Positions 44,124-64,000 are shown, numbered from the stretch's first letter. The stretch: DNA of 64,000 nucleotides from an uncultured archaeon (GCA_964348065.1 CAYGBE010000155.1:35664-99663); one strand, 5' to 3'. Program-made: numbers and translations. Notes: generated by a model not told the origin, from the letters alone.

Positions 44124-46361
44124 GTGGTTTTTGAGGGTGAAGTCACAGATGGAATCTTGAGAGTAAATTGTTTAGGGTCTATTTTTGGTTTTACTCTTGA
44201 AGATTCTGATGTTGTGATGGCTAGAGTTATTGAAAAGCTAATTGAAGAAAGAAAAGTTGTTGGTATTGTTTTAGCAGAAACAAGAGAATATGAATATGAT
44301 TATGAACAAACAAAAATGTTAACACAAATTGCCAATGCCATCATGAAAGCTTTAAGAGAAGAAAGAATAGTTTCAATAAAAAATATTGCAACTGGCAAAT
44401 GTGCAAAATATTTAGGGGTTTGGTATACATGGTTAAGGGATTTGGTAACATTGCAATTAAGAGGAGACCCAATAGGTGCTTATTTAAATTTAACAAGAGA
44501 GATCAGACACTTGAAAACTAAAGCTAAAACTTCAGAAGAATATGCAAGATGCGTAGATCATTATCTTAAGAATGCTTTGTTTCCTTTGAAAGAGCTTCTA
44601 GATGCTTGTGAATTAATTCAAAAAGCAAAACCATTTCTAGTTGGTTATCATATTGGCGACAGGAAACTTTATAGAAAGTTTTTCAGACCAACAACAAGAC
44701 CAAATTTCATGTACACAAAATTCATGACGCAAGCACCTCCAGGAGAACCAATTGATAAATATAAAGTTGAGAATATAGACATTGAGATATTTAAGGTTCC
44801 TGGAAAGATAAGGTATATTTATCATGTTGTTCCTCCTGAATTTAAATTAAGTGAGGAAGAATATACTCTCTTAGACGCTGCAAGAAGAATCTTAGAAAGA
44901 AGAAGACCAAGAGAACTAGAAATAGCAGAACAAGAAAAAATGAGAGAGCTCTTTCATACTCTAAGTTTAGATTTATTAGAAGACTTGTCAGAAGAAATGG
45001 GAAAACCTTTTGAAAAAGGAAAAATGGAAGCATTGGCAGCAATGCTAACAAGACATACTGCAGGTCTAGGAATATTAGAAATTTTATTAAGAGACAGTAA
45101 AATAGAAGATATTTTTATTAATTCTCCTTTAGGCAATTTACCAATTTTTATTAATCATCAAGAGTTTGAAGAATGTGAAACAAACTTAGTTCCTACACAA
45201 GCAGATGGTAACAGATGGTCAACAAGGTTTAAACTTATATCAGGAAGACCTTTGGATGAGGCAAATCCTGTTTTAGACGCAGAAGTTACTGTACCTGGCG
45301 GAGTTGCAAGAATTGCTGCAATATATCCAAGATTATCTCCTGATGGATTGGGTTTTGCAATAAGAAGACACAGATTTAAACCATGGACATTTCCCTTGTT
45401 CCTAAATGAAAAGTTTTTGAATGGTTTATTTGGAGGATTAATTTGGTTTTTAGCTTCATATGGAAGAACTTATTTGGTTGCTGGTTCAAGAGGTGCTGGA
45501 AAAACTTCTTTTCTTGGATCAACCATGTTACAAATATTACCTTACTATAGAATCTTAATCTCAGAAGATACTTTGGAACTTCCTGTTGAACAACTAAGAA
45601 ATTTGGGTTATAATATTCAAAGACTAAAATCAAGGTCTGTTATAACAAGAGTTGAATTAGAGCTGCCTGCAGAAGAGGTTGTTAGAACTGCACTAAGATT
45701 AGGAGATTCTTGCTTATTCATAGGAGAAATTAGAAGTGTAGAAGCAAAAGCTTTGTTTGAAGCTATGAGAATTGGAGCAATGGCAAATGTTGTTGCTGGA
45801 ACAATTCACGGAGAATCTGCTTACGGAGTCTTTGATAGAATTGTAAATGATTTAGGAGTTCCTCCAACAAGTTTCAAAGCAACAGACTTGGTCATTGTTT
45901 GTAACAAACTAAAAACTCCAGATGGTTTAAAAACATTTAGAAGAATAACAGAGGTAACAGAAGTCAGAAAGCACTGGAAAAAAGATCCTGCTGATGAAGG
46001 TGGTTTTGTAAATCTTATGGAATATCATGCTGGAGAAGATACCTTGAAAGCAACTGACACTTTATTAAATGGTGAATCACAAATTTTAAACCAAATTGCT
46101 GAAAGGGTTCCTGGATGGACTGGAAGGTGGGAACGTGTTTGGGATAACATTCTATTAAGAGCCAAAATTTTAGATACTGTTGTTGATATTGCTAAAAAAG
46201 TTAATAACCTAGATCTGCTAGAAGCCGAAACAACAATAAAAGTAAATGAAATGTTTCATGAATTCGCTGAAAAATCCAGAAAGGAGATAGGAGTTGTTGA
46301 TAGTAAAAGAGTTTATGAAAACTGGTTGGATTGGTTTAAGAAATACGCAAAGGCTGTTTAA
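44124..46361 (+). CDS. secretion/pilus-assembly ATPase of the FlaI/TadA/VirB11 (GspE) superfamily with a long N-terminal extension
   Basis: Walker A LVAGSRGAGKTSFLGS, Asp box ILISEDTLEL, Walker B RLGDSCLFIGEIRSVEA, His box AGTIHG. Walker A sits near residue 455, against about 265 in FlaI. Confidence 0.85.
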   Translation: MVFEGEVTDGILRVNCLGSIFGFTLEDSDVVMARVIEKLIEERKVVGIVLAETREYEYDYEQTKMLTQIANAIMKALREERIVSIKNIATGKCAKYLGVWYTWLRDLVTLQLRGDPIGAYLNLTREIRHLKTKAKTSEEYARCVDHYLKNALFPLKELLDACELIQKAKPFLVGYHIGDRKLYRKFFRPTTRPNFMYTKFMTQAPPGEPIDKYKVENIDIEIFKVPGKIRYIYHVVPPEFKLSEEEYTLLDAARRILERRRPRELEIAEQEKMRELFHTLSLDLLEDLSEEMGKPFEKGKMEALAAMLTRHTAGLGILEILLRDSKIEDIFINSPLGNLPIFINHQEFEECETNLVPTQADGNRWSTRFKLISGRPLDEANPVLDAEVTVPGGVARIAAIYPRLSPDGLGFAIRRHRFKPWTFPLFLNEKFLNGLFGGLIWFLASYGRTYLVAGSRGAGKTSFLGSTMLQILPYYRILISEDTLELPVEQLRNLGYNIQRLKSRSVITRVELELPAEEVVRTALRLGDSCLFIGEIRSVEAKALFEAMRIGAMANVVAGTIHGESAYGVFDRIVNDLGVPPTSFKATDLVIVCNKLKTPDGLKTFRRITEVTEVRKHWKKDPADEGGFVNLMEYHAGEDTLKATDTLLNGESQILNQIAERVPGWTGRWERVWDNILLRAKILDTVVDIAKKVNNLDLLEAETTIKVNEMFHEFAEKSRKEIGVVDSKRVYENWLDWFKKYAKAV

Positions 46362-48451
46362 TGATTTTAAAAAAAAAGGACAAGAAAACAAAGAAACTTG
46401 CAAAAGCTTTAATGAAGGCCGAGGAAGCAAAAAGAATAGAAATGCAAAAAGTTTTGAAAATAAGTGAAATAAAAATTCCTGAAAAAAGAGAATTCTATCC
46501 TTATCCACGAGAGTACATGACATTTTTAGAAGAAGTTAAAATAAAACCAAAAACCCTTTATGAAAAAGCATGCCATTTTGCAGAAGGTTTATTCCCAATA
46601 GAGCCTGGAGGAAAGACAAGGGAAAAAATTTTAGAAAGTTTAAGGGCTGCTTACATTAATTCAACCCCTAGAGGATCATTCTCTTTGGCAATCTTAATAA
46701 CAATGTTCATGATCGTATTTGCCATGTTTTATATTGTATTCATAGGTACTGATGTTTTTGGTTTCTTTGGTTTTGGTTTTGCTTTCGTAGTATTTTGGTA
46801 TTTCTACAATTATCCAGCTGCCAGAGCCAAAACAATTAGTGTGAGAATGTCTTCTGATGCTGTTCTTGCAATTTTATACATGGTCATTTACATGAGAGCT
46901 TCTCCTAATTTGGAGGGAGCAATAAAATTTGCATCTAAAAATTTGGACAGTCCTTTAGGATGGGACTTAAGAAAATTGTTGTGGGACATAGAAATTGGAA
47001 GATATTCTTCAGGCAATGAGGCTTTGGTTGTCTATGTAACAAAATGGAAGGAAAAAAACAAAGAATTTGCAGAAGCTTTGAATTTACTAAGAGGTTCCGC
47101 AGTTGAAATGAAGAGAAGAAAAATGGTTTATGATGAAACAATAGATGTTATATTAAATGGAACACTAGAAAGGGCAAAACATTATGCAGCAGAACTAAGA
47201 ATGCCAATGATGCTTATTTATGCTGTTGGTGTTTTGCTTCCTGTTATGGGTTTGGTTTTGTTTCCAATAATCTTAATATTTATTTCAGACGTTGTGAAAC
47301 CAAGTTTTGTGATTTTTGGTTATGATATTCTTTTGCCGTTATTTCTTTACTTTATTGTTAATCATATACTATCAACCAAACCTCCAACCTTTTCTCCGCC
47401 AAACATATCTAAAGCAAAAGGGGTTCCCCCAATGGGAAAATTTGCCTTGGGAAATGCTTTGATTCCAATATGGCCTATAGCCCTACTAGTATCTTTACCA
47501 TTTATATTCGCAGGATTGATGGGATTGTCAGACCCTGACCCTTATTATTCTGTTACATTTTCTATTGTAATTATTTTTGGGATTGCAATGATAGTATCTA
47601 CTTATGCGTTTTTAGATTCTTATCAAAAAAACAGAGTCAGAAAGGATATAGAAAAAATTGAAAATGAGTTTGCAGTAGCATTGTTCCAGCTTGGTAATAT
47701 AATTGCAGGAGGTACTCCTCTTGAAAAGGCTATTGATCAAGTAAAAGTAAATCTAAAAGAATTAAAGATTGTTGATATGTTTGATTTAATAAGTCTGAAC
47801 ATAAAAAAGTTTGGTTATACTTTTGAACAAGCTCTGTTTGACAAAGAGGTTGGAGCAATATGGTACTATCCATCAAGCTTAATTCAATCAATAATGAAAA
47901 CTGTGATAGAGTCTTCAAAGAAAAACATTAGAACAGCCGCAAACTCAATGGTTGTAATATCAAGATATTTGAAAGGAGTTCATGAAGTTAAAGAAGAGAT
48001 AAACGAAATTTTAGGTGAAACAGTTTCTAGCATGAAATTTTTAGCAATGTTTCTATCTCCAATGGTTGCAGGTGTTACTGTAACTTTGGCTGTAATTATA
48101 TTAAGAATATTAGAAAACTTAGGGGCTGCCATGGAAGGCATAATGGGAACAGCTGGTGCTACTGGTAGTTTAAACGCAGCACAAACAATGTTAATGATTC
48201 CTTGGGCAATGGGAGGAGAATTACCAATCTCGCCCACATCATTTCAGTTGATTGTTGGTGTTTACATGATTGAAACTGCTATTTTATTAGCCGTATTTTT
48301 AAATGGAATTCAATATGGAGAAGACCCTGTTGGCATGAGGAACAATGTCTGGAATATTCTATTAATTGGTATAATATTGTACACTATAAGTTGGTTTGTC
48401 ACATATTCTATGTTTGGAGGAACAATAGAGGGTTTGTTAGCCCCGGTATAA
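46361..48451 (+). CDS. FlaJ/TadC-like polytopic membrane platform protein (two T2SSF-like cytoplasmic domains)
   Basis: 696 aa. Basic cytoplasmic N-terminus and two helical cytoplasmic domains between TM bundles. Start overlaps the ATPase stop (TAATGA). Confidence 0.7.
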   Translation: MILKKKDKKTKKLAKALMKAEEAKRIEMQKVLKISEIKIPEKREFYPYPREYMTFLEEVKIKPKTLYEKACHFAEGLFPIEPGGKTREKILESLRAAYINSTPRGSFSLAILITMFMIVFAMFYIVFIGTDVFGFFGFGFAFVVFWYFYNYPAARAKTISVRMSSDAVLAILYMVIYMRASPNLEGAIKFASKNLDSPLGWDLRKLLWDIEIGRYSSGNEALVVYVTKWKEKNKEFAEALNLLRGSAVEMKRRKMVYDETIDVILNGTLERAKHYAAELRMPMMLIYAVGVLLPVMGLVLFPIILIFISDVVKPSFVIFGYDILLPLFLYFIVNHILSTKPPTFSPPNISKAKGVPPMGKFALGNALIPIWPIALLVSLPFIFAGLMGLSDPDPYYSVTFSIVIIFGIAMIVSTYAFLDSYQKNRVRKDIEKIENEFAVALFQLGNIIAGGTPLEKAIDQVKVNLKELKIVDMFDLISLNIKKFGYTFEQALFDKEVGAIWYYPSSLIQSIMKTVIESSKKNIRTAANSMVVISRYLKGVHEVKEEINEILGETVSSMKFLAMFLSPMVAGVTVTLAVIILRILENLGAAMEGIMGTAGATGSLNAAQTMLMIPWAMGGELPISPTSFQLIVGVYMIETAILLAVFLNGIQYGEDPVGMRNNVWNILLIGIILYTISWFVTYSMFGGTIEGLLAPV

Positions 48452-48483: not shown

Positions 48484-50010
48484 ATGAAAGCAATTATGGT
48501 TAGTCTTGTTAAAAATCTTATTATTGTTTTAATAGTGTTTCTTTTGGGTCTTGGATTGCTTCTTTTAGCACGTGATGCTTTTTTAGGAAAATCCCTCGAA
48601 CAATTTAAAAGATTCAAAGTTTACAAACCTTACATTTTTAACGTAAATGATTTGTTAGTAGATCCAAATGACCCAGATGTTTTTGATGCAGGTGAATTAA
48701 GTAATTACCTTTCAACAACTTTTTGCAGTGATCTTAAAAATTGTTTAGAAGTGAATGCCAGAGGCGGAGAAAAATGCGTTATAAGTTATAAAGTTGAACC
48801 TAATGTAGATCTTGATCCTGATGACATTAGAATTGCCATAAACAACTGCCCCACAGAAGATATAAAGGAAGAGTTGTACGGTGGAATAGGAAGAAAGGTA
48901 TGTGGATTTAAGAGTGATTCGCTCAACCCAAATATAGACAGAATCAGAGAAGATAACATAACAATTGTGGATTATCAACCTTATTTGCATAACTGTTATC
49001 TTCCAGAAAGTCTTGGGACAAAAAATATTTTTGATGAAAAAGATAAGATTTATTATTTTTATAGTGGTAGGGGAGATGTGAGTGGATATGATTTTGAAAA
49101 CGGCGGAATAGTAAGAATAGTTATAACTAATGTTAGTGTAGTAGGTCTTTATGCAGACTGCTCTTATAGTGTTTATGTTTGTGGACAAAATGCCATAGCA
49201 GAATCTGAAGACGAAACACCAGTTGATGTTTTTAGAACTGTTCAGAACTTGCCTGAAGAAGAGCTCTACTATAATGAAACAGTCATTTGGAAGGGTGATA
49301 CACCTCAGGATTTTTTACAAATTTCTTTATGGTGGCTTCTTTGTAAGCCTTTTGAACTAATTGTTCCATTTCTAGATTGTGGAGATCTACCAAATCCAAT
49401 AAATTACAATATTTATGGCTATCACCCACGTACTTATGAATTTACATTTAATTCAAGCGGTTGTCTTTCACGCGGGACTTGTAGGGAAGCTTTAATTGAT
49501 GCTGCAGACGCTGGAATATGGGAATGGGGTAAAAAAAATTATAAAAAAGATAAAACAATGAAATACTTTAGAGATTCTTATTATCCAGACATAATGCGCA
49601 ATTATTTCAGCTATTCACCTATTGATATTAATAACATTTCGTATGATTCGGCAATAGCCTTTGGCTCAGGATGTTGGAATGTTAACTATGAAAATACAAA
49701 CACTGTTTACAGGCAAAGATTAATTTTTGGTGATGATGTTTTTATTGATTCAAATAGTCTATATCATATTTTTAATTTCAGTTCGCCTTTTAATCTAAAC
49801 GCAAACGAAAAATTAAGAATGAGTCTGGGAATTAAAAAAATATTTATTACGGGTAAGATGTATCATATTTTAATTGAAATGCCACCACTTATAATTTTAG
49901 ATAAAGAATCATCCAGACTTAAAGATGTTAAAGATACATATAATCTAAGAGATGATTTCGAATCAAGAACAATATTAGTTATGGATCCCATAACATTTTG
50001 TAGTGAATAA
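48484..50010 (+). CDS. giant-adhesin family paralog 1: pilin-like N-terminus (MKA + hydrophobic helix), Cys-containing extracellular protein
   Basis: 508 aa. N-terminus MKAIMVSLVKNLIIVLIVFLLGLGLLLLA. Shared signature DCSYSVYVCGQNAIAESEDE. N-terminal domain (GGIGRKVCGFKSDSLN) aligns with paralog 2. Confidence 0.6.
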   Translation: MKAIMVSLVKNLIIVLIVFLLGLGLLLLARDAFLGKSLEQFKRFKVYKPYIFNVNDLLVDPNDPDVFDAGELSNYLSTTFCSDLKNCLEVNARGGEKCVISYKVEPNVDLDPDDIRIAINNCPTEDIKEELYGGIGRKVCGFKSDSLNPNIDRIREDNITIVDYQPYLHNCYLPESLGTKNIFDEKDKIYYFYSGRGDVSGYDFENGGIVRIVITNVSVVGLYADCSYSVYVCGQNAIAESEDETPVDVFRTVQNLPEEELYYNETVIWKGDTPQDFLQISLWWLLCKPFELIVPFLDCGDLPNPINYNIYGYHPRTYEFTFNSSGCLSRGTCREALIDAADAGIWEWGKKNYKKDKTMKYFRDSYYPDIMRNYFSYSPIDINNISYDSAIAFGSGCWNVNYENTNTVYRQRLIFGDDVFIDSNSLYHIFNFSSPFNLNANEKLRMSLGIKKIFITGKMYHILIEMPPLIILDKESSRLKDVKDTYNLRDDFESRTILVMDPITFCSE

Positions 50011-50164
50011 AAATGAGAGGTCTTGATAAGGGTACAATCATAGCAATATTTGTTTTAGTCTTATGTTTATTAATTTTCTTTTTGATCTTAATAGATGTTT
50101 TTAATTTTGATATAACAAATCTAATACCACTCTGATATTTATATCCGTAATTTAAAATAAAATT

Positions 50165-52660
50165 ATGAAAGGCATATCACTTATTATTAGTGTATTCGTT
50201 CTTGTTATAACACTTTTTTTGGTTCTTACTTTTGCATCTATATTTGGTTTTTTTTCTGGAGAAGAAGACACTTCTATAGAACCATCTGATTCAATTGTAA
50301 TGGGTGATTATTCAACTTATATATTGGATGAAAATCCTGTTGATCCAAATACATATGATGAGTGCGACAAGTTAAAAAAAGCTATAAAATATACCATATT
50401 AAATGAAAGGTCTTATAAAATCGATGAAATAGCATATGGAGATGATCTTTATAGTCCTATTCCGTTTCCTTTTATAGGAGATTGTGCTGGTGAAGAAATT
50501 TTAACAGATATTGGGGGTGGACTATCACAAAAAGTATGTACATTTAGAACAATAAACTTAAATGATGTGCAAGGCAATGGTGCTGCTGGAAGCCCATATG
50601 GTGGAATAAGTGATTCTTTAAATCTTTCTTTTGATGTATGCTCTTATGGTAATGCTAATGATCCTTTTTTATTAGTAGCAGGTAATACAGGACCATTTCC
50701 TGAAGAAATTGATGCTGCCCCTAATATAGCTAAATTATATTATTCTCCTGATTATCTTTATCAAAGGGATGGAAATTACGTGCATCATCCATCACTAAAC
50801 GACAACAGTGCATTTGGTAATACCTATAATGGTCCAGGAAGATTAAAAATGTATGTTGGTAATGCAACATTTTTAGGTATTGCTCCGTTTTCTGGTGGTG
50901 ATTGTAGATTTAATCTTTATTTTTGCCCACGGCCAGCAATAGCAAGATCAAAAGAAAATGCAACAATAAAAATTTTTGATTTGTTTAAGAATTTAGAGTT
51001 ATTTTATTTTGATGTACTTGGCTTTATTCCAGACCACGTTAGAGATCAAACTGAATTGGCTGTACCTATGCCTGGTTATGATAAAAGGTTTTATAATTGG
51101 AACTACTATGATGTGCCTTTAGATGGTGAATATAAAGTTGAGACCATAATAAATGCCATTAAAGAAGGTTTGTATATAAGTACTAGAGCAAAAAATTATT
51201 TTTGGTCACATCCTCATTGGGATATTGAAAGAGACATTAATATAAATATGCCCGGAGAATGTTGGAATCCATCTTACACTAGCCGACTCACATCTAATAA
51301 TCCTGATGATCGTTCACACTCTATAAGATTTAATTGTGATGATGATAACATCTGCGCTGGCACTTTAAGAATAAAAATAGGTATAAGACATGACAATATT
51401 ACTCAAAACGTAGATGGTGAAGATAAAAATTTAAAATATGTTTCAGGAATAATTGGCTTTTGTAGTAGTCTTAGACCAGTGGCAAATTTCCTAGAATCTG
51501 CAACAATAGTAGCTGTTGGTGAATCTATTAATTTTGATGCAAGCGGTAGCTATGATGATGGCACTATTGTAAGTTATGAGTGGGATTTTGGTGATGGAAG
51601 TACTGGTACTGGTGTATTAATCAGTCATGCCTATTCAGCTGTTGGAACTTATACTGTAACACTAAATGTAACAGATGATGAAGGATTATCACGAACAATA
51701 AGTGCAACAAAAACTGTTTATGAGTGTGGAAACGGTATTTTAGAAGCTGGAGAAGTGTGTGATGATGGAAATACTATAGATTGTAATCCGTATCCTGGAT
51801 GTACTGCTGATTGTTCGAGATGGCAATCTTGTGGGGATGGTATATCAGAGTGTACTGATGTTTGTGATGATGGAAACAATGTTAATTGTGATTCATACCC
51901 TGGTGGATGTAGAGGTGATTGTAGTAGAATAGAAGAGTGTGACAACAATATAGTAGAGTGTGGAGAAGAGTGTGACGGTACTACTATACCTTCAACTTGT
52001 TTAGCAGAGGGTTTTGTTGGAGGTGTCTTAGATTGTTATGCAGGAAGTTGTACATTTGATTATACTAATTGTGTTTGTGCTGATAAATGTGAACTTGGAT
52101 TTGAATATAGGAATGGTCTAGGTGATCCATGTGTATATTCTTTAATGAGAGATTGTAGATATGGTTGTAGTGGGGATAACTTGAACTGTATACCTGGAGA
52201 ATGGTGTCCCTCAGAAACTTGTTCAGGTGGTAGCTGTCCTTTCCCAGGTCCTTATGGAGAAACAGTTTCAACAGTAGCACAATGTATAAAACAAGGTGAT
52301 CCAGCACCTACTGAAACATATGAAAATAGATGGGCAACTAATCTTATTGATTGTTTAGGAAGTTGTGGGGGAGGAGGTAATTGGTGTAATATAGGCTTTT
52401 GGTATTGTTGTGGATCTAACGAGATATGTACTGCTACATGTGCAGTAGACACAACATGTACTTATGAATGTTATGACACGGGAGGTGGTTTGAACCAACA
52501 ATACACTTGTACAGATGGAGGTGCTTGTATTAATGGTTGTGATGATTTTTGCTTTGGAAATAATAAAGTTGGATTCGGTTGTGTACTCGATACATGTAAC
52601 ATGCTAGTTGGAATTGCCTGCCCTGCAGGAACAAATTGTGTTAATGGCGCTTGTGTATAA
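50165..52660 (+). CDS. giant-adhesin family paralog 2: MKG class-III-like N-terminus, PKD domain, three Myxococcus-type Cys repeats and a Cys-rich C-terminus
   Basis: 831 aa. MKGISLIISVFVLVITLFLVLTF. PKD motif …YEWDFGDGSTGTG…GTYTVTLNVTDDEG. Three repeats of CG[ND]G…GE.CDDGN. Signature DCRFNLYFCPRPAIA. Confidence 0.7.
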   Translation: MKGISLIISVFVLVITLFLVLTFASIFGFFSGEEDTSIEPSDSIVMGDYSTYILDENPVDPNTYDECDKLKKAIKYTILNERSYKIDEIAYGDDLYSPIPFPFIGDCAGEEILTDIGGGLSQKVCTFRTINLNDVQGNGAAGSPYGGISDSLNLSFDVCSYGNANDPFLLVAGNTGPFPEEIDAAPNIAKLYYSPDYLYQRDGNYVHHPSLNDNSAFGNTYNGPGRLKMYVGNATFLGIAPFSGGDCRFNLYFCPRPAIARSKENATIKIFDLFKNLELFYFDVLGFIPDHVRDQTELAVPMPGYDKRFYNWNYYDVPLDGEYKVETIINAIKEGLYISTRAKNYFWSHPHWDIERDININMPGECWNPSYTSRLTSNNPDDRSHSIRFNCDDDNICAGTLRIKIGIRHDNITQNVDGEDKNLKYVSGIIGFCSSLRPVANFLESATIVAVGESINFDASGSYDDGTIVSYEWDFGDGSTGTGVLISHAYSAVGTYTVTLNVTDDEGLSRTISATKTVYECGNGILEAGEVCDDGNTIDCNPYPGCTADCSRWQSCGDGISECTDVCDDGNNVNCDSYPGGCRGDCSRIEECDNNIVECGEECDGTTIPSTCLAEGFVGGVLDCYAGSCTFDYTNCVCADKCELGFEYRNGLGDPCVYSLMRDCRYGCSGDNLNCIPGEWCPSETCSGGSCPFPGPYGETVSTVAQCIKQGDPAPTETYENRWATNLIDCLGSCGGGGNWCNIGFWYCCGSNEICTATCAVDTTCTYECYDTGGGLNQQYTCTDGGACINGCDDFCFGNNKVGFGCVLDTCNMLVGIACPAGTNCVNGACV

Positions 52661-52944
52661 AAACATTTATAATTTTAAATAAAAAAATTATCCTGGTCTT
52701 TTATAAACATACTTAACTTCACTTTTTCTCTTTTTATAGAATAACCAAATTAAGTAAATGGCAAGTATAATGAGTAAAGGTAGAAAAACAAGGAAAGATA
52801 AAATAAGTAGTAAAATTATAATCTTTTTTTGGTTTGACTTAAAAAATTCTTTTATACCCATATATATTCTTAAATAACAGCGGTTTAAATATTTTTTGAA
52901 ACAATATCAACACTAATTTATATACGGAAAATTAAAAATAAAAT

Positions 52945-53580
52945 ATGGAAAAGGGGCAATTCGTTCTTTATATTGTTTTGACAGTTGTACTTTTGGCACT
53001 TGTTTTTGTTTTTGTTACTCAAATGTTGTCTTTATCAGAAAGGGCTGAAGAAGAGCTCTCACCCACACTTGAAGAACCAGAAGAAGTTTTAGAATCCAGA
53101 TACACTTCATTGGTCTTATCTCCTGAAGATTTACCAGAAGATATAATTTACAAACTGTTTAGACATTTTGATCCAGTATTTTTAAATGAAACAAGTGGTC
53201 CAATAGTACTTTATAATGTATTTATATTGGACCTCAAAGGAAATGAGTATGATGATACTACTGGTTTTTTGATAGAAAACTTAACAGAAGGTATAGAAGA
53301 CTTTAGTGCTTATGATAATCTCTATCAAATAGGTAGGGATGCTCAACAACCACCAAATTGTGGAGCTGTACAAAGAACTAATGTTATAAATTATAATAAT
53401 GACTGTTGGAGTGGCGTTTTAGCCCTTGTTGGGCCCTGCAGTATTTATGTGAATGGTGATGCAAACGATAAATTTAATGATAGAATAAAAATAAGAGTAA
53501 TGTGGCGATTTACAGGATTAACATCACCTATTACAGATAGAGAAATAATTCGCCCCATAGTAACAATATGTGATGGTTGA
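52945..53580 (+). CDS. pilin-like protein (211 aa) with a class-III-signal-like N-terminus
   Basis: MEKGQFVLYIVLTVVLLALVFVFV: K-G followed immediately by a 20-residue hydrophobic helix, as in archaeal prepilins. Confidence 0.5.
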   Translation: MEKGQFVLYIVLTVVLLALVFVFVTQMLSLSERAEEELSPTLEEPEEVLESRYTSLVLSPEDLPEDIIYKLFRHFDPVFLNETSGPIVLYNVFILDLKGNEYDDTTGFLIENLTEGIEDFSAYDNLYQIGRDAQQPPNCGAVQRTNVINYNNDCWSGVLALVGPCSIYVNGDANDKFNDRIKIRVMWRFTGLTSPITDREIIRPIVTICDG

Positions 53581-54136: not shown

Positions 54137-54181
54137 AATAATCATAATGGTATCTAATAATGCCATATATAGTGGTGTAAA

Positions 54182-54409: not shown

Positions 54410-54626
54410 TGGTGTAAAAATGGAATTTGAACTCGAACAAGAGACTTTTAGTAAAATTATTTATATTTTATTAGGGGTGATGGTATTAATAGCATTCGCA
54501 TTTATTTTAGATGTTATATTTTTTGGTGGGAATGTATTTGTCAGAAATATAGCTTGTTTGCTTGTGTGGTTTAATCCTATTAATATATTACCAGGTTATT
54601 TGGGTTGCGAAGCAATCCCATTTTAA
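54387..54626 (+). CDS. small membrane protein (probable start at ATG 54420, MEFELEQ…)
   Basis: A hydrophobic helix (IIYILLGVMVLIAFAFIL) follows the short polar N-terminus. Confidence 0.3.
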   Translation: MTQWYRFNGVKMEFELEQETFSKIIYILLGVMVLIAFAFILDVIFFGGNVFVRNIACLLVWFNPINILPGYLGCEAIPF

Positions 54627-54671
54627 AAACGATTTAGTTAATTTTATATTAAAAGAAGAGAAATTGAAAAT

Positions 54672-57600: not shown

Positions 57601-57701
57601 GTTTTAATGTTAGTGCACGGGATATTGGACATTGTCCTTGGCATTCTCCCTGGTGTGACTGGACTGAACAAAAAAGAGATGTTGGTGTGTTATGTGTATA
57701 A
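54672..57701 (+). CDS. giant-adhesin family paralog 3: MKA class-III-like N-terminus, tandem CxxCxxC array, conserved ESED domain
   Basis: 1009 aa. MKADVLITLLVIFIIVVVGF. Seven CxxCxxC units between residues 113 and 236. Signature DCSYNVHICSQEALAESEDD. Confidence 0.65.
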   Translation: MKADVLITLLVIFIIVVVGFLGVFIIGQVFGSDIERYFQSTFTGCGREGQECCPQKWCDAGLECSEINICVEKFGYEAGPSNIYLIYNSTEFFNSSQREDFFYLKTGLGGEDCSNAINCINCTKLYHFSNALTCTDCDYCNITDNTCEDCFVCDSAEGGNYQELFDCYDCGGCNVDISNYMADSCSQCSFCNGANISTYENGLSCSYCNGCEPNVGDDCYFCYECGGSEYKVCEKCERIAATTCEITSDYELCQAAKEEVMLFDGGGEPIESFLPVPWETTYSFYTTVSNVLGNCPVTGDLKKFIAEGGRQKICEYENSNFVERYFESDDTAYVPADLIRMITSGSITGENKKGILFNSCGPPPLPEEYIMGKCIDTDGGYNNLVKGTCKDESTCINGCTDYCNGNAIVEYVCEFDDCIPLLPEPPCPAVEPLNPSCVDGACVGALGTIYHNDPQIFGSSGTTPKTPEDDVPVNLQIVISDVLWNENSTNDCSYNVHICSQEALAESEDDAILGFWNLSAYFDLNAYEVEINEWPPFDLIDPIFEDVQINVTAFRYRPTFKIYVNANYDVQHIAKAIVAGLRDYMIYNSFNNKTVEFFCTNNNLHPNLETCVQNDVSVHLNDKVSWNLESFASTVDTLASIPVYKNIYYNSTKTSYSNEEVPIQITFFAYTTNYSFNYNNENLSRKILVSPVIVIGRNRAAAPTGLSFVWDCSNWDEGDKHDFYSPTCSGDEPYAISCVSENYYPTQSTDEGDYGEDLIQKIKIRNDESCVVRSRDTSGGNEQGRRVCVLCSNRTPSIVWGLTSPYDQDWYTTTWEVGEPWYMSVESKECPSGHYPISCLADIDELDPNRGDEFDEVVLTDLYLEDNKCKGTFRDLYGDGPWFNKGGYHWFRITLGIVCFDEYLGTPKWTGYVSKDEGTGPSEIWPLTISGHPIQNFSSLECNAAEFPVSVFSRVDSSDAGAYTEDILQSTYLDGQRFNVSARDIGHCPWHSPWCDWTEQKRDVGVLCV

Positions 57702-57718: not shown

Positions 57719-60700
57719 ATGGTTGGTTATAGAGAAAAAATAATAATAGCAGTAGTAGTAATTGTTATTGGTTTATTAATAGGTCTTTATTTCCTTGAAA
57801 CTGCATTTGGTTTTGATTTAATAAGACACATATCAAGCCTTCCACTTGACATAGAAGATATTGAACAGCCTTTAGACATATCACAAATACCTGAATACGA
57901 AGAATATAGGGGCTCGGGACATGACGGTATGATTCTTGAAAGAGACGCTGGTGAGGATGAAATTAATAATAATTTTTTAATGGAAAGAATTCTTGTTACA
58001 GATTGTAGTGGCTGCTCTTCTTGCAATGGTGTTGATTTTGACAGTCCCCCTGATGGAGTGGTTGATGCTTATCTTTGCGATGATTGTAGTACTTGTGAAG
58101 GGATAACAGAAGCTAATAGGTTTGAAAATTGTATTGAATGTGAACCGGCTTTAGGAGATTGTTCAATCTGTGAAGACGTACAAGAAGAATATTCTTTATG
58201 TAAAGATGTAAAAAAATGCATTCTTGAGTACACAGGAAATCCAGAATATTATAAAAAATATGGTTGTATTATAAGTGAAATAGATCGCAATGAAAATGTT
58301 CATTTTGATATTAACACTCTAATAAATGTTTTATCGTCTTGCAAAAATGAATTAATAACACTTAACGTAGGTCACAATGCTACAAGAGAATTATGTTTTT
58401 TTAATAACGCATCTATATCCTATTATGATTTTGAAAGACCACAAGATTTTTATGTTAAAACTGATAAGCTGTTTTATAGGGCTTCTCTGCCTTCATTACA
58501 GTGGACTCTTTGTATTGAGGAGGGTTCAATTCTAACACCCTTTAAGCAAGTGGGGGGAGATCTTATTGAAAATTATAGAGCTTATGTGGCAATAGAAGGA
58601 AGTCCTGATGGAGAATGGGAGGTTTTTGCAGGACTTTTTGAAAACTATATCAACCCACTAACTTGTACCAATGCTGGACCTTATTACAAACTCGGGAATA
58701 TGAAAACCGATGAGAATGGTTTTGGACATGCAGAATTTATTGATTTTCCACAACAATGGAAAGATGATGTAGCAGATGATCCTGAATTAAATAGAATGAC
58801 TGGAATATTTGTAAAAAAGGTAGGAAGTGCAACATTTGACAGCGTATATGCTGCTTTTTATGCCAACGAACCTGAAAGTAGTGGAACATGGTCTGGAGAT
58901 CTTAGATATGCGAATTGTAATTTTAACACAGACCCAGAACCATATTTAGAAGAAAGACCATGGTGGGTTCTTCTTCCTGATGATTTAGATTCACCCTGGT
59001 CTCTTATTGAAGGAAACGTAGATTCATCAGTAAAGGTTTTTTATGATTCAACAATGCCTGGAGGAGGATTTTCTAAAAAACTTGATGGCGATGTAGATAA
59101 AGATGGCATGGTTAATATTCTTGATGTTTTGCTCTGTAATCTACATTGGGGTGAAGATTGGCCACCTTGTGATTGGGATAATGATGGTATAATAGGTGTA
59201 GATGACGTAATGTTTGTGGGTGCCAGATTTGGTGATACACTTGAGTTCAGTAGAGGTAATTTAAAACTATCTCTTGGAAGATTGGATACAGACTTTATGA
59301 GAAATTGTAAATTTGATATTTATATTTGTGGTCAGGAAGCATTTGCAGAATACGAAGAGGAATTGATACTAACTCTATCTGATTTTTTAATGAATTTTAA
59401 TCCTACAAATGTTTACAAAAAAAAACCAACACCCAACAATGAAATAATCATAATTTACAATTATTTTGAATTTGATTTGGATAAAGATTATACTATTGAA
59501 GAAATAGAGTCTGCAATAAAAACAGGATTTAGACTTTGGGAACAAGACCAATTTATCTTTACTAGCTATTTTACTGGTTTAGATTGGTTAAGCAGCGACA
59601 ATAATGATGGAATTTATGAAAATGATTGGTATAAAATACCCGGAGTAGTTTCATACGGTCAAGACTGTTGGAGTGCAGCTGTAGAGAATTTTATAGAAAA
59701 TAATGAAGAAAAAGCTATAATAGGTAATTGTCCTAGCGATGTTTGCGGACAAAAGTTAAAAGTTAGGGTAGCATTTAAATATAAAGAACCTAATGTAAAT
59801 GATCCATGGAAAACTCCTCTTTATCCAACAATAACATTTTGTGGTTTAGGAGCTACAGCAGCTGCTGTTTGTGGAAATGGAGTTTGTGAATCTGGAGAAG
59901 ATATTTCTAATTGTCCAGCTGATTGTTTAGCAAATAACCTAGAAGTTTTTGCATTTGAAAATAGTATTCCAGTTGGTGCAATGGTTGCAATAGGATTAGG
60001 AGATGTTAACTGGGGTGGTGTTGTTAATGATAATGATATATGGTTCTTCAATACTACTCATAATCCTAATAGTTGTTTTAATACAGCTCCAGGACATGCT
60101 AACTGGAATATTGATTGTGATATGAATTTGGATAACAGGGTAAATGCTTTGGATCAAGGAATTGTAAATGGTGCATATGGAAACACAATACCGATTTTCA
60201 CAACTACATTTGCTACTGATTTGGCTGCTGGAACATATGAACTAAGAGCAAAATATAAAAATCAGATTCAAAACAATACTAGTGTTCAAGTATTTTCAAA
60301 TCAAATAACAACAGTATACTTTAACTTTACAATAGATAACCTAGAAGTTCATGCATTTGAAAATAATATTCCAGTTGGTGCAATGGTTGCAATAGGATTA
60401 GGAGATGTTAACTGGGATGGTGTTGTTAATGATAATGATATATGGTTCTTCAATACTACTCATAATCCTAATAGTTGTATGTGGACAGCTCCAGGAGATG
60501 CTAACTGGAGTATTGATTGTGATATGAATTTGGATAATGTTATAAATTTTAGGGATATTATTATTGTAGCATTTAATTATGGGAAAACAAGACCAATTCT
60601 CACAACTACATTTGTTACTAATTTATCTATTGGAACATATGAACTAAGAGCAAAATACAAGAATCAGATTCAAAACAATACTAGTGTTGTTATACTTCCA

Positions 60701-62089
60701 GGTGAAAAAACAACAGTATACTTTAATTTTACAGCACCAATTTGTGTAGATTTTGTAAGTGAAAACGATCCGCCTGGAGCTATACCATTATCTGATTATT
60801 TAAATGCAGGTTATGAACATTGTATTCTAATACAAAATAGTAATAAGATAAACATAACTGAATTAAGCTTTTTGACCAATAGCAATAATCTTGCCACTTT
60901 CCAAGTTAGGAACACAATAATGGTATTAGGAGAACAGCAGCCTGGAAGTGTTATTGGAACAAGTTCAGAATGTAATCTGATACCTCAAACATGGGTATCA
61001 TGTCCTGTTTTTGCAGAAGTTAATAGTAATTTCTTTATATGTGAAGCAAATTCTTCAGGTCCTCCTGCAACTTGGATATATCCTGCAAGAAATTCAACTG
61101 GCACAACACCTTACGTAGCTTGGTATTATCACCCAGTTAATGGTTGGGAAAAATGGGCACCAAACCAAATGTGGGTCTTTAAATATAGATATTGTACTTC
61201 CAATCTTGTGTATGTGGCTGATGGCATATTTGGTGGTCTACGAATTATTGATGCGGCTGATTCAACTAATCCAGTTTTTGTTGGTAGTACAGACACACCA
61301 GGTTTGTGTTTTGATGTTTATGTTTCTGGAGATTATGCGTATGTGGCTGATGGTATTGGCGTTGGTGCTGGTCTAAGAATTTATGATGTAGCTGATCCAA
61401 CTAATCCAACTTTTGTTAGTAATTTAAGTTCACTATTTGGTGCTCGAGGTGTTTATGTTTCTGGAGATTATGCGTATGTGGCTGATGCATCAAATGGTCT
61501 GCGGATATTTGATGTTTCTGATCCAAGTAGTCCTGTTATTGTTGGAGGTATTATGGGCGTATTTCTTAATGACCTCTATGTGTCTGGACAGTATGCTTAT
61601 TTAGCACATGGCACTTCAGGTTTTCGTATTGTTAATGTGGCTGATCCAAGTAATCCAACTCTTGTTAGTACTATTCTTATGGGTATTGATGTTCGTGATG
61701 TTCATGTTTCTGGAAATTATGCATATTTGGCTGATAGTGATGGTTTAAAAATAGTTAACATAGCTAATAAAAACAATCCTACAGTTATTAGTAGTGTTGC
61801 AGTTCCAACTATTGCTCAAGCGATATTTTTGTCTGGACAGTATGCTTATTTAGTAGATCAAATAAATGGTCTGCGGATAGTTGATGTTTCTGATCCGAAC
61901 AACCCTGTTGTTGTTGGGAGTCGTGCAACAGGCGGGAGCGGTTGGGACGTTCATGTTTCTGGAGATTATGCATATGTTGTAGAACGTGTTGCTGGTCTGC
62001 GGATAGTTGATGTTTCTGATCCAAGTAGTCCTGTTATTGTTGGTACTTATGATGGGCCTGGCATAACTAGTGGTGTTTTTATCGTTTAG
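57719..62089 (+). CDS. giant-adhesin family paralog 4: N-terminal TM, CxxCxxC units, dockerin-like Ca-binding module, duplicated 134-aa module and eight C-terminal LVIVD repeats
   Basis: 1456 aa. CSGCSSC…CDDCSTC. DVDKDGMVNILDVLL…DWDNDGIIGVDDVMFV. Signature NCKFDIYICGQEAFAEYEEE. Eight repeats of YAY[VL]AD…GLRI[VIF]DVSDP. Confidence 0.7.
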   Translation: MVGYREKIIIAVVVIVIGLLIGLYFLETAFGFDLIRHISSLPLDIEDIEQPLDISQIPEYEEYRGSGHDGMILERDAGEDEINNNFLMERILVTDCSGCSSCNGVDFDSPPDGVVDAYLCDDCSTCEGITEANRFENCIECEPALGDCSICEDVQEEYSLCKDVKKCILEYTGNPEYYKKYGCIISEIDRNENVHFDINTLINVLSSCKNELITLNVGHNATRELCFFNNASISYYDFERPQDFYVKTDKLFYRASLPSLQWTLCIEEGSILTPFKQVGGDLIENYRAYVAIEGSPDGEWEVFAGLFENYINPLTCTNAGPYYKLGNMKTDENGFGHAEFIDFPQQWKDDVADDPELNRMTGIFVKKVGSATFDSVYAAFYANEPESSGTWSGDLRYANCNFNTDPEPYLEERPWWVLLPDDLDSPWSLIEGNVDSSVKVFYDSTMPGGGFSKKLDGDVDKDGMVNILDVLLCNLHWGEDWPPCDWDNDGIIGVDDVMFVGARFGDTLEFSRGNLKLSLGRLDTDFMRNCKFDIYICGQEAFAEYEEELILTLSDFLMNFNPTNVYKKKPTPNNEIIIIYNYFEFDLDKDYTIEEIESAIKTGFRLWEQDQFIFTSYFTGLDWLSSDNNDGIYENDWYKIPGVVSYGQDCWSAAVENFIENNEEKAIIGNCPSDVCGQKLKVRVAFKYKEPNVNDPWKTPLYPTITFCGLGATAAAVCGNGVCESGEDISNCPADCLANNLEVFAFENSIPVGAMVAIGLGDVNWGGVVNDNDIWFFNTTHNPNSCFNTAPGHANWNIDCDMNLDNRVNALDQGIVNGAYGNTIPIFTTTFATDLAAGTYELRAKYKNQIQNNTSVQVFSNQITTVYFNFTIDNLEVHAFENNIPVGAMVAIGLGDVNWDGVVNDNDIWFFNTTHNPNSCMWTAPGDANWSIDCDMNLDNVINFRDIIIVAFNYGKTRPILTTTFVTNLSIGTYELRAKYKNQIQNNTSVVILPGEKTTVYFNFTAPICVDFVSENDPPGAIPLSDYLNAGYEHCILIQNSNKINITELSFLTNSNNLATFQVRNTIMVLGEQQPGSVIGTSSECNLIPQTWVSCPVFAEVNSNFFICEANSSGPPATWIYPARNSTGTTPYVAWYYHPVNGWEKWAPNQMWVFKYRYCTSNLVYVADGIFGGLRIIDAADSTNPVFVGSTDTPGLCFDVYVSGDYAYVADGIGVGAGLRIYDVADPTNPTFVSNLSSLFGARGVYVSGDYAYVADASNGLRIFDVSDPSSPVIVGGIMGVFLNDLYVSGQYAYLAHGTSGFRIVNVADPSNPTLVSTILMGIDVRDVHVSGNYAYLADSDGLKIVNIANKNNPTVISSVAVPTIAQAIFLSGQYAYLVDQINGLRIVDVSDPNNPVVVGSRATGGSGWDVHVSGDYAYVVERVAGLRIVDVSDPSSPVIVGTYDGPGITSGVFIV
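59940..60743 (+). repeat. near-identical 402-bp direct tandem duplication inside 57719-62089 (2 x 134 codons)
   Basis: Copy 1 spans 59940-60341 and copy 2 spans 60342-60743. They share long identical stretches (ccagttggtgcaatggttgcaataggattaggagatgttaactgg…) and each encodes a dockerin-like CDMNLDN loop. Confidence 0.8.
61195..62086 (+). repeat. eight tandem LVIVD-type beta-propeller repeats (about 36-40 aa each), repetitive at the nucleotide level
   Basis: Repeated gtttctggagattatgcgtatgtggctgatg… and ggtctgcggata[gt]ttgatgtttctgatcc blocks. Confidence 0.7.
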
Positions 62090-62286: not shown

Positions 62287-62562
62287 TTATTGACACCTGT
62301 TATAAATACAAGTTCCACCACCACAATCTGGATCATTAGTTAAACAACCACAAAAAGTTGGTTCATTATTTATACTTAAACAATACGGACCAGTAGGTTT
62401 CGTATTACAATCTGAATTATCTCTACATTCAACCTCTTCTATTGCTAAAACAGTTCCCATCTCAACTCTTCCTGAAAATAAAAAGTTAAGATGAAATGTT
62501 AGAACTATGATAGCAAGGATTAAAGCCATAACATACCACACGTTAACTTTAAATCCTTTCAT
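62287..62562 (-). CDS. small Cys-rich pilin-like protein (91 aa) with an MKG N-terminus, opposite strand
   Basis: MKGFKVNVWYVMALILAIIVLTF followed by an 11-Cys domain (…CGCLTNDPDCGGGTCIYNRCQ). Confidence 0.45.
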   Translation of the reverse strand: MKGFKVNVWYVMALILAIIVLTFHLNFLFSGRVEMGTVLAIEEVECRDNSDCNTKPTGPYCLSINNEPTFCGCLTNDPDCGGGTCIYNRCQ

Positions 62563-62624
62563 AAAATTAATTAAAATTTTTTATATATAAAACTTTTATA
62601 CTGGATTTCACTTAATAAATATGT

Positions 62625-62975
62625 ATGAAAGGCGCTGTTGCAACAGACACTTTAGTGGCTATTGGTATAATGCTACTTATAATTTTAATACTTGCAATAA
62701 TTGCATATTTTTATATTTGGGGGCAATTTCATGAGATTTCATTAGAATCTTATATAAGTCAAAATTGTGGTGAATGGGTAAAAGAAGGATGCACTAAACG
62801 TTCTGCTTTACCTCCTGATGGTATAAGAATAGAAGTAGGAACTGAGACAAAATATTTGGGTGAATTATGTGTAGCCAATTATGGTGGAGATGTAAGTAAT
62901 TGGGAAAGTGAATTTGATAGTGACCCAAAATATTATGAAAATTGTAAAGCATTTTGTATGGGTTGTCCGGAGTGA
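62625..62975 (+). CDS. pilin/archaellin-like protein (116 aa) with a class-III-signal-like N-terminus
   Basis: MKGAVATDTLVAIGIMLLIILILAIIAYF resembles archaellin and pilin N-termini (KG then A…GTL-type hydrophobic helix). The C-terminal domain has 6 Cys. Confidence 0.55.
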   Translation: MKGAVATDTLVAIGIMLLIILILAIIAYFYIWGQFHEISLESYISQNCGEWVKEGCTKRSALPPDGIRIEVGTETKYLGELCVANYGGDVSNWESEFDSDPKYYENCKAFCMGCPE

Positions 62976-62979
62976 TAAA

Positions 62980-63288
62980 ATGAAAGGCGATTTATTAATG
63001 ACATTTGTTGTTGTTGTTGTAATAGCAATTGCTGTTTTATTGATTTGGTATTTGTGGTTACAGCTACAAAAGGGAACTGTTGATATAGTTGCAGCCCAGA
63101 ATATTTTAAGAAATTGTTGCACTGATAGAAGTAGATGGGATTGTGATATGACTAATTTAAATGTTAATTGTAATGTTCCTTGGAATGAAAATCCTGAAAC
63201 TCTACAGCAGGTAGCAACCAGAGCACAAATTGATTTAACTGACCCAAACGCACTTTGTAACTTTTGTAATTGCCAAACATGCTCATAA
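62980..63288 (+). CDS. pilin-like Cys-rich protein (102 aa), MKG N-terminus
   Basis: ATG at 62980, 4 nt after the previous stop: MKGDLLMTFVVVVVIAIAVLLIWYLW, then a 10-Cys domain. The track's longer 62908 start overlaps the upstream gene. Confidence 0.5.
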   Translation: MKGDLLMTFVVVVVIAIAVLLIWYLWLQLQKGTVDIVAAQNILRNCCTDRSRWDCDMTNLNVNCNVPWNENPETLQQVATRAQIDLTDPNALCNFCNCQTCS

Positions 63289-63301
63289 ATTAGGTGTTCT
63301 A

Positions 63302-64000
63302 ATGGTAGTAATATCACAGGCCTTGGAGATTGTAATAGGTTTAGCTATTCTTATTTTATTAGTCATGTTTTTTTTTAACATATTTGGAACACCAGAATGC
63401 AATGCTTTTGCAAATACAACTGCAGTACAACTTAAGCAAGCAATAGACAAGGTTGCTTTAGAAAATGGTGTGGCTCCTTGGCCAGGAGATGATGTTCCCC
63501 CTGATGAAAAAGGAGAATATTATGCTGCTGTTCCAATTAGACTTTGTGAACAAAGAGGAGACGCGTGGAAAGCTGCTCTCTGGGGTCATCTACCAACACA
63601 TGAAATAGTTTATGAAACATTTCCTCAAAGTGCTGGTGCATGGATGGAAAGCACGCCTTTTGGTGGGGGTGCAATGTCTTCATTAATGTTCTATGGGGCC
63701 TTGAAGATTGCCCCAAAAGCCATTAGTTGGGGCAGAACGCTTGCAGGATATGGAACAAAATTTATTAAAGGAGCAATTAAAGTTATTAATCCACTAGAAT
63801 GGGCAACACATATAGGAAGACTTCGAAGAGCTCTGGATTACGTCAGAAGAAGTAGAGCATATAAATGGTTTGCTAGAAGATTTAGTGCTTCTTCAAGATT
63901 AAGATCTGTTTTAGATAGTGTTCCGGACAGATTTAATTATAGATATTTTTCGAAAAAATGGAAAAACGTAGCAACAAGTCTAAAAAACTCAAGAGCTAGA
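63302..64000 (+). CDS. N-terminal part of a further secreted or membrane protein that runs off the window end
   Basis: ATG at 63302 preceded by AGGTG. 233 codons without a stop. Hydrophobic N-terminus (IVIGLAILILLVMFFF), then a Gly/Ala/Trp-rich domain. Composition is again GC-richer. Confidence 0.45.
   Translation, partial: MVVISQALEIVIGLAILILLVMFFFNIFGTPECNAFANTTAVQLKQAIDKVALENGVAPWPGDDVPPDEKGEYYAAVPIRLCEQRGDAWKAALWGHLPTHEIVYETFPQSAGAWMESTPFGGGAMSSLMFYGALKIAPKAISWGRTLAGYGTKFIKGAIKVINPLEWATHIGRLRRALDYVRRSRAYKWFARRFSASSRLRSVLDSVPDRFNYRYFSKKWKNVATSLKNSRAR

Follow-up and report, generated by a model that had tools for sequence, protein, structure and literature searches.

A type IV pilus-like gene cluster with short putative class III leaders and giant modular surface proteins in an uncultured archaeon of Aenigmatarchaeota type

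Large cysteine-rich proteins with signal peptides, termed 'adhesin or minor pilin', are predicted in several archaeal type IV pilus (T4P) loci, and a coiled-coil accessory protein is part of a halobacterial system whose ATPase clade reaches nanoarchaea (Makarova et al. 2016, PMC4858521). 'Dark-matter' islands beside FlaI/TadC genes of DPANN archaea have been read as diverse pilins (Makarova, Wolf & Koonin 2019, PMC6393860). The 'system 2' loci of Sivabalasarma & Albers 2026 combine ATPases with extended termini, a single platform gene, class III and non-class III pilins, membrane proteins and large adhesin-like proteins (10.64898/2026.04.22.720090), and in bacteria modular pilins of up to 860 residues are established (Raynaud et al. 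2021, PMC8179133). Here we describe a related locus in a stretch of 64,000 nucleotides (the window) from an uncultured archaeon (GCA_964348065.1 CAYGBE010000155.1:35664-99663). It consists of a motor pair, i.e. an assembly ATPase and a platform protein, a conserved accessory module, and an array of products that mostly begin with M-[KR]-[GA] followed by a long hydrophobic helix. The region is probably the proximal two-thirds of the main T4P-like cluster of its host genome. A sequence-only reading of the window had held that pilins so large, with such domain combinations, are not a described feature of archaeal T4P, which is too strong a claim in view of the four accounts cited above.

The locus resembles the afGspE / Haloferax PilB-PilC type (clade 2 of Makarova et al. 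2016; 'system 2') in its ATPase with extended termini, its one platform gene, the mixture of class III and non-class III small proteins, the extra membrane proteins and the large adhesin-like proteins. By sequence as well as by structure, the ATPase is also matched best by afGspE. It differs from that type in a distinct 745-aa ATPase family common to Aenigmatarchaeota, Woesearchaeota and Pacearchaeota, in its three-residue leaders, and in a family of proteins with five transmembrane segments (5-TM) and a domain called g508, both without described counterparts; no PilA, Pilin_N or Class III signal family is detectable here. With the DPANN islands (PMC6393860, Fig. 2A) it shares unannotated signal-peptide proteins beside FlaI-like and TadC-like genes. 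That account comprises a general statement and one figure panel; the three-residue leader, the giant modular members, their common domain and the upstream module are absent from it.

As in PilB and PilC of S. sanguinis (PMC8179133) and the large minor pilins GspK and CofB, a class III leader and helix would carry bulky adhesive modules, which are vWA or lectin in the bacterial modular pilins and PKD, propeller and lectin here, with display at the tip or in low abundance proposed. The bacterial proteins contain a recognisable pilin module (IPR012902), whereas none is detectable here. Motif-positive proteins of the window and its relatives exceed the bacterial sizes cited, reaching 1009-1226 aa, and their context is archaeal, of A24/PibD type. 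The Sulfolobus bindosome (BasEF with class III sugar-binding proteins) likewise combines large globular class III-signal proteins with a T4P-like ATPase and platform and with small pilin-like proteins; unlike the bindosome, the locus has another gene set, no solute-binding-protein substrates, and an ATPase far below the BasE cutoff. The T4P of episymbiotic Candidate Phyla Radiation (CPR)/Patescibacteria likewise pair conserved machinery with variable pilins, which are implicated in attachment to the host, and the cells that bear them are ultra-small and depend on hosts. Their machinery is of the bacterial PilB/PilC/PilD kind, and the analogy is ecological only.

New here are the ATPase family across the three lineages named, together with the 5-TM and coiled-coil module, the near-universal three-residue leader in Aenigmatarchaeota, and the number and size of motif-positive giants with their common domain lacking a fold match. 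The gain lies in these specifics and not in a new principle, because variable pilins and large adhesin-like proteins beside archaeal T4P motors have already been published.

Assembly motor and accessory module

The window is AT-rich (~30-35% G+C) and includes archaeal housekeeping genes (SMC, ThyX, Trm5/Tyw2 methyltransferases and a diphthine-synthase-like methylase). Its assembly ATPase is 100% identical to NCBI protein P0001, 87-88% identical to those of loci L001 and L002 ('uncultured archaeon' metagenome-assembled genomes, MAGs), 60-75% to those of many Candidatus Aenigmatarchaeota MAGs and 42-46% to those of Woesearchaeota, Pacearchaeota and Nanoarchaeota MAGs. Because of these identities we regard the organism as a DPANN archaeon of Aenigmatarchaeota type. 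For comparison, 77 related loci were fetched around orthologous ATPases (+-10 kb), with the taxon labels given by the MAG depositors. ATPase orthologs also occur in a record titled Omnitrophota bacterium (L076) and under the name Heimdallarchaeaceae (P0004); both labels are most likely due to binning contamination, being evident mis-binnings.

The ATPase carries an N-terminal extension of ~220 aa and a C-terminal helical extension. It matches Pfam T2SSE (5.4e-12), and in a sequence search of the PDB its best match is afGspE of Archaeoglobus (2OAP, 4e-29), with FlaI (3e-14) and CpaF behind. Foldseek with its AlphaFold2 (AF2) model (predicted local distance difference test, pLDDT, 75.7) returned 2OAP at 2.6e-17, 4II7 at 7e-16 and CpaF at 1.8e-10; sequence and structure searches thus rank the relatives alike, afGspE on top. 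All 30 orthologs compared keep the residues of Walker A (G454..GKS462), the Asp box (E481-D-T), Walker B (D528..GE535-R537) and the His box (T560-H562-G) unchanged. By E-value, FlaI (2.8e-37) ranks first among the NCBIfam models, but it scores 128.7 bits against an equivalog cutoff of 550, and the BasE model reaches 53 bits against a cutoff of 1000. Many ATPase orthologs contain an intein (Pfam Intein_splicing and LAGLIDADG_3), which brings their length to ~1250 aa (P0010, P0031, P0037, P0055, P0067 and P0070; loci L082, L083 and L105, with ATPase genes of 1258 aa). The copy in the window is intein-free.

The start of the platform gene overlaps the ATPase stop, and the two genes adjoin in 52 of the 77 loci. 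The window protein itself scores below cutoff against Pfam T2SSF (0.0048); the family was found in 11 of 20 orthologs (best 4.3e-7), and because of these matches we accept the protein as a FlaJ/TadC-type platform, an assignment of moderate confidence. A FlaI/TadA-type ATPase with all four motif boxes and a FlaJ/TadC-type platform behind it had been proposed before any database search, and both proposals stand. With the FlaI score far below the equivalog cutoff, and no archaellin, FlaH or FlaF/G found, the pair is a type IV filament motor, as supposed, and not an archaellum core.

The accessory genes (40624-44057) lie outside the interval in which the cluster had first been placed (44124-64000). 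They encode four small polytopic membrane proteins and, divergently transcribed from the ATPase, two coiled-coil proteins (42902-44057; Table 1). A Pfam scan of the four membrane proteins (40624-42883) gave no match. A hidden Markov model (HMM) of the 5-TM family detects one to four copies in 59 of the 77 loci, always just upstream of the ATPase; homologs of the 259-aa coiled-coil protein occupy the same position in 46 and those of the 129-aa protein occur in 28. The latter is 31% identical to residues 163-235 of the former. A weak match to the coiled-coil family DUF7310 (1.1e-5, below cutoff) in the 259-aa protein is present in 7 of 21 orthologs, the 129-aa protein has no family above cutoff, and searches of Pfam and the PDB with the coiled-coil proteins gave generic coiled-coil matches only. 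All four membrane-protein genes and the two coiled-coil genes belong to the conserved surroundings of the motor. The 5-TM and coiled-coil genes form a conserved accessory module of the cluster, and no function has been described for any of these genes.

The 5-TM family was considered as a divergent prepilin peptidase and ruled out, because no acidic residue, and hence no Asp, is conserved in its 124 members. In two loci from Aenigmatarchaeota / Nanoarchaeota MAGs (L023, L026) the upstream 5-TM and coiled-coil genes are kept at an ATPase that has no adjacent platform gene. The motor may be linked more tightly to the accessory module than to the platform gene.

N-terminal leaders of the downstream products

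Seven products of the locus begin with M(E)K[GA] directly followed by a hydrophobic stretch: MKA/IMVSL (48484), MKG/ISLII (50165), MEKG/QFVL (52945), MKA/DVLIT (54672), MKG/FKVNV (62287-62562), MKG/AVATD (62625) and MKG/DLLMT (62980). In all seven this stretch comprises 26-33 residues, at most one of them charged. The layout had been recognised from the sequence, in 'at least eight' products where we find seven, and its genes had all been put on one strand, which holds for the listed products other than MKGFKVNV, encoded on the minus strand. Of the 16 locus genes, 7 show M(E)K[GA] with a hydrophobic stretch, and of the 57 other open reading frames (ORFs) of the window none does (Fisher p=7e-6). 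Among ORFs starting with MK, position 3 is G or A in 6/6 cases inside the locus versus 1/10 outside (p=9e-4). These counts exclude chance as the source of the pattern.

The pattern recurs in relatives. Homologs of the 508-aa protein (n=34) almost all begin with M-[KR]-[AGS] and continue with ~25 hydrophobic residues, and the source contig's own gene call for this protein uses the MKA start. Elsewhere the leader varies in length while [KR]G stays fixed at the helix, as in MNSKG, MKRKG and KNKKG of deeper Aenigmatarchaeota-group loci. The L003 homolog of the 91-aa protein starts MKKG/FEW, one residue longer with KG retained, and in a family of small proteins MKG, MKKG, MNAVKG, MKLVKG or MTKKMKG precedes xELP[IV]N. 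Loci of Pacearchaeota and Woesearchaeota (Woese/Pace group) have the same ATPase and platform, followed by canonical pilin N-termini (KKG/Q, KRG/Q, KKG/D).

Comparative counts were made with a relaxed rule that uses a hydrophobicity window. A strict FlaFind-like regular expression for class III signals matches 3 of the 7 N-termini of the locus; the other four escape it owing to F, K, D or T at +2 to +5. When only ORFs with an N-terminal hydrophobic segment are counted, the Aenigmatarchaeota group shows the motif in 66/164 downstream and 12/91 upstream of the ATPase (p=4e-6), and the Woese/Pace group in 80/166 and 6/98 (p=8e-14); across the 77 loci the downstream enrichment is 4-14 times, concentrated on the platform side. 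Three-residue leaders make up 43 of the 66 Aenigmatarchaeota-group cases, and 5-12 residues are found in Woese/Pace. Motif-positive proteins of at least 400 aa number 24/66 in the former versus 2/80 in the latter.

The M-K-[GA] N-termini are thus probably class III signals, as first proposed: the homologs keep M-[KR]-[AGS], [KR]G is retained at variable leader length, the motif is enriched downstream of the ATPase, and the orthologous Woese/Pace loci encode canonical pilin N-termini and, in nine cases, an A24 peptidase. According to the passage of PMC4187195 that cites Ng et al. 2009, PibD cleaves engineered leaders of 3-4 residues, so that a three-residue leader is compatible with known enzymology.

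Giant and small surface proteins

Table 1. Genes of the T4P-like cluster, in window positions
Feature	Position	Strand	Support or remarks
Four small polytopic membrane proteins (199, 159, 192, 169 aa)	40624-42883	+	5 TM segments each; the last three are paralogs (5-TM family)
259-aa cytoplasmic protein: small N-terminal helical domain, Pro-rich linker, C-terminal coiled coil	42902-43681	-	
129-aa coiled-coil protein, paralog of the C-terminal part of the 259-aa protein	43668-44057	-	
745-aa type IV filament assembly ATPase, GspE/FlaI/TadA superfamily	44124-46361	+	Pfam, PDB, Foldseek, motifs
696-aa polytopic platform protein, FlaJ/TadC/T2SSF type (moderate confidence)	46361-48451	+	T2SSF matches of orthologs, adjacency
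508-aa protein with MKA leader, minimal member of the g508 extracellular domain family	48484-50010	+	34 homologs, AF2 model
831-aa protein with MKG leader: g508-like domain, PKD, Cys-rich repeats (56 Cys)	50165-52660	+	
Five small proteins (211, 126, 59, 75, 79 aa), one N-terminal hydrophobic helix each	52945-54626	+	
1009-aa protein with MKA leader: six CxxCxxC units, g508-like core motif (CSYNVHICSQEALAESEDD), 62 Cys	54672-57701	+	
1456-aa protein, N-terminal helix without K-[GA]: CxxCxxC units, g508-like domain, two ~190-aa repeats, LVIVD propeller	57719-62089	+	
91-aa Cys-rich small pilin-like protein with MKG leader	62287-62562	-	
Two small Cys-rich pilin-like proteins with MKG leader: 116 aa (62625-62975), 102 aa (62980-63288)	62625-63288	+	
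N-terminal 233 aa of a large protein (MVVISQALEIVIGL...), running off the window	63302-64000	+	

The four giant products (508, 831, 1009 and 1456 aa) share a colinear region at 22-25% identity (BLASTP, 1e-4 to 1e-7), and an HMM of the 508-aa family finds colinear matches in the 831- and 1456-aa proteins. Their description as paralogs therefore stands, the relationship being real but weak. The 508-aa protein consists essentially of the shared domain, g508, alone. Its signature is C-x-[YF]-x-[VIL]-[YH]-[IVF]-C-x-Q-x-A-x-A-E with a later C-W motif. The family is very narrow, with 65 representatives of clusters matched at E<=0.001 out of 1.84 billion proteins, and neither Pfam nor NCBIfam has a model for it. 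In the AF2 model of the 508-aa protein (pLDDT 75.7, pTM 0.76), residues 2-34 form an N-terminal helix and residues 36-49 a linker predicted with low confidence, followed by a globular body of mixed alpha/beta structure.

The modules named in the first description of the locus were all recovered. The PKD domain of the 831-aa protein (1e-23) covers aa 437-516 (nt 51473-51712), and the six CxxCxxC units of the 1009-aa protein cover aa 134-225 (nt 55071-55346). Two more such units are found in the 1456-aa protein, which ends in an LVIVD beta-propeller (4.3e-64, about nt 61286-62086) and has a dockerin-like insert in its g508-like domain (aa 457-492, Dockerin_1 1.3e-6) and a choice-of-anchor B match (7.8e-15). 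A myxo-type cysteine-rich repeat was also detected among the giants, and the 1009-aa protein belongs to no Pfam or NCBIfam family. Giants are detectable in only 3-5 of the 77 loci. In the giant proteins of relatives, ConA-like lectin and GHL15 modules are added. PKD, LVIVD, dockerin-like, lectin and GHL15 modules are typical of adhesion or carbohydrate binding. The largest motif-positive protein of the window measures 1009 aa, and L001 encodes one of 1226 aa.

The Cys content is 2.8-6.7%. Cys-richness was considered as a pilus-specific trait and discarded, since it is matched by other secreted proteins of the window; in this organism, secreted proteins have a high Cys content in general. A 542-aa secreted protein (4104-5732, +) with a Sec-type N-terminus contains 54 Cys, MopE-like metal-binding motifs and a C-terminal TM anchor. 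A 1045-aa GHL15 glycoside-hydrolase-like secreted protein (19602-22739, +) has an N-terminus of Sec type and not of MK[GA] type, and the L083 pilus cluster, too, encodes a GHL15 domain, within a 2955-aa protein.

The order of genes in the window cassette (508, 831, 211, 126, ..., 79, 1009; 48484-57701) is common to L015 and L005, whose ATPases are 73-75% identical to that of the window, and not to L001 and L002 (87-88%). The 831-aa orthologs in L005 and L015 are 40-43% identical and the 1009-aa orthologs 33% (L005) and 37% (L015); within the cassette protein identity is 30-45%, between genomes whose motors are 73-88% identical. Low identity together with synteny to the more distant genomes implies fast divergence and cassette exchange, and suggests that whole pilin/adhesin cassettes have been exchanged between lineages. 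A conserved motor with divergent, swapped substrates would fit surface proteins under diversifying, host-specific selection.

Within the group of five small proteins, starts of interest are MEKG/Q (52945) and IKS/AVIV (54182); the other three lack K-[GA]. The last three of the five match a trio found after the platform gene in relatives, directly 3' of it in L001, L002, L003 and L082. The 285 bp that separate the 831-aa gene from the 211-aa gene contain a possible gene on the opposite strand, a 57-aa ORF with one TM segment (52688-52861, -). For the 116- and 102-aa proteins there is no family match and there are no detectable homologs in the related loci.

Full-length homologs of the last gene encode 824-932 aa. 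A homolog search with its product yielded one 180-aa match, and relatives were then found by an alignment-based metagenome scan. In these the cluster extends >10 kb past the last-gene homolog, first with proteins of 869-2955 aa and, at the distal end, with 3-6 tandem genes for proteins of 110-150 aa beginning [KR]G/xELP[IV]N. The KG/xELPIN proteins are, by their sequences and arrangement, the best candidates for major pilins; none is encoded in the window, and they would sit past its end. Between the tandem genes of three loci (L082 21211-21522, L098 18416-18718, L105 18702-19013) lies a gene for a putative Alba-like chromatin protein of ~100 aa (VFVGKKPAMSYVLACVTQF).

Elsewhere in the window, an 89-nt tRNA at 25133-25221 (+) was detected by Rfam (52 bits), ARAGORN reporting none there; it is probably an intron-containing archaeal tRNA. 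A block at 27200-31280 (-) encodes membrane and Fe-S-type subunits (282-aa 6-TM, 388-aa, 141-aa and 292-aa 9-TM proteins) and resembles a membrane-bound hydrogenase or Mrp-like complex. The 292-aa protein, the only one of the block that was scanned, has no Pfam match.

Proposed mechanism and rival explanations

We consider it probable, for the assignment and the following mechanism taken as a whole, that the region serves as a T4P-like cluster. The cut after G/A would be made by an A24 prepilin peptidase whose gene would lie elsewhere in the genome, and the leader would then be three residues long, the minimum that PibD is known to accept. The motor would pull the hydrophobic N-terminal helices out of the membrane and polymerise them into a filament of small subunits (the 91-, 102- and 116-aa proteins; in relatives also the tandem KG/xELPIN family). 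Giants of 508, 831 and 1009 aa, possibly with the 1456-aa and the last protein, would join by the same helix as low-abundance or tip subunits, and would display the lineage-specific globular domain with PKD, Cys-rich, dockerin-like and LVIVD modules to bind a host cell or polymer.

Several observations weigh against this mechanism. Searches with phmmer and an HMM of nine A24 peptidases found none among the window ORFs, and none in the Aenigmatarchaeota-type loci out to +-10 kb from the ATPase or the last gene. A Peptidase_A24 gene (Pfam, 1.3e-13) does follow the pilin genes in 9 orthologous Woese/Pace loci. In a published table of 24 Aenigmarchaeota MAGs, PF01478 Peptidase_A24 is recorded for nearly all of them, next to 1-3 FlaI and 1-4 FlaJ copies (PMC8407114, supplementary file 3); judged by that table, this genome is unlikely to lack a prepilin peptidase. 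Cleavage of a three-residue leader is deduced here, and an uncleaved signal anchor, with an MK start and a long hydrophobic segment, looks alike. The 1456-aa protein starts MVGYREK/III, without G/A, so that the leader motif is absent from the largest giant. The products at 53577, 53957, 54387 and 63302 also have an N-terminal hydrophobic helix without K-[GA]. No product matches known pilin or archaellin families of Pfam. The AF2 model of the 508-aa protein has no fold match in the PDB, pilin-like or other, and no helix packed pilin-style on a beta-sheet; it consists of a TM helix, a linker and a globular domain, so that the giants, called pilins in the earlier reading, are unproven as pilins in the structural sense. 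ORFs of the related loci were called crudely (longest ORF, first start codon), which makes the motif counts there approximate.

It is unlikely that the giants, and perhaps many of the small proteins, are no more than ordinary surface proteins (S-layer-like adhesins or envelope proteins), Sec-exported or anchored by their N-terminus, which happen to lie beside a motor, MK[GA] being no peptidase site and no polymerisation taking place. In favour of this view, the locus has no peptidase, the g508 model joins a helix through a floppy linker to a globular domain that is not of pilin type, the motif is missing from the 1456-aa protein, Sec-type Cys-rich proteins are encoded elsewhere in the window (4104-5732, 19602-22739), and possible signal peptidase I (SPase I) sites can be read after the helix in some proteins (TFA/S in the 831-aa, VFG/S in the 1009-aa protein), which likewise count against cleavage before the helix. 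This explanation is at odds with the nearly invariant G/A at position 3 in 34 homologs and with its restriction, among MK starts, largely to the locus. Deeper lineages carry longer, canonical class III leaders at the same gene positions, the motif enrichment is tied to the platform side of the ATPase, and the hydrophobic stretches, at 26-33 residues, are longer than is usual in Sec h-regions.

Equally improbable in our judgement is a bindosome- or type II pseudopilus-like device, in which a short, non-protruding assembly of small pilin-like proteins positions or releases large binding proteins at the cell surface and no long adhesive pilus is formed. It would account for large globular class III-type substrates with binding modules alongside several small pilin-like proteins, and for the lack of an obvious abundant major pilin inside the window; class III signals on large binding proteins are known in archaea (10.64898/2026.04.22.720090; PMC4858521). 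The low BasE score and the absence of any large protein belonging to a substrate-binding-protein family (Pfam, NCBIfam) argue against a bindosome, and the 3-6 tandem KG/xELPIN copies at the distal end in relatives look like a major-pilin set. An archaellum core (FlaI/FlaJ) with archaellins elsewhere, the label that KEGG-style annotation gives to the pair in Aenigmarchaeota MAGs and that is favoured by FlaI as best NCBIfam model by E-value, by JGI homolog names that include 'FlaI' and by the listing of FlaI and FlaJ in most MAGs (PMC8407114), is effectively excluded because the FlaI score reaches 129 of the 550 bits demanded and no archaellin (PF01917), FlaH or FlaF/G was found in the window locus or in the scanned genes of related loci, while afGspE matches better by sequence (4e-29 vs 3e-14) and by structure and orthologous loci encode short pilins and a peptidase.

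Beyond the filament with displayed giants that we favour, a wider proposal can be put forward only tentatively, as we would sooner doubt it than accept it: Aenigmatarchaeota may have remodelled a DPANN-wide type IV filament into an adhesin-display machine, with three-residue leaders (MKG/MKA/MRG) on nearly all substrates, a third of these being 'mega-pilins' of 400 to >1200 residues built on a lineage-specific fold not represented in the PDB, with interchangeable binding modules, and with cassettes swapped between lineages. If true, the mega-pilins would surpass in size all pilin-type subunits described so far and would determine the host range of these symbionts; the conserved genes for 5-TM and coiled-coil proteins would encode new core components.

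DPANN archaea need physical contact with their hosts. We found no published account of host-contact molecules of Aenigmatarchaeota in the literature. The locus offers a testable candidate set for such contact, made up of a conserved motor that can serve as a marker, an accessory module, and hypervariable small and giant surface proteins. It is also a natural test case for the minimum length of a class III leader and for the maximum cargo of a type IV filament subunit, and its surface repertoire could set host or substrate specificity.

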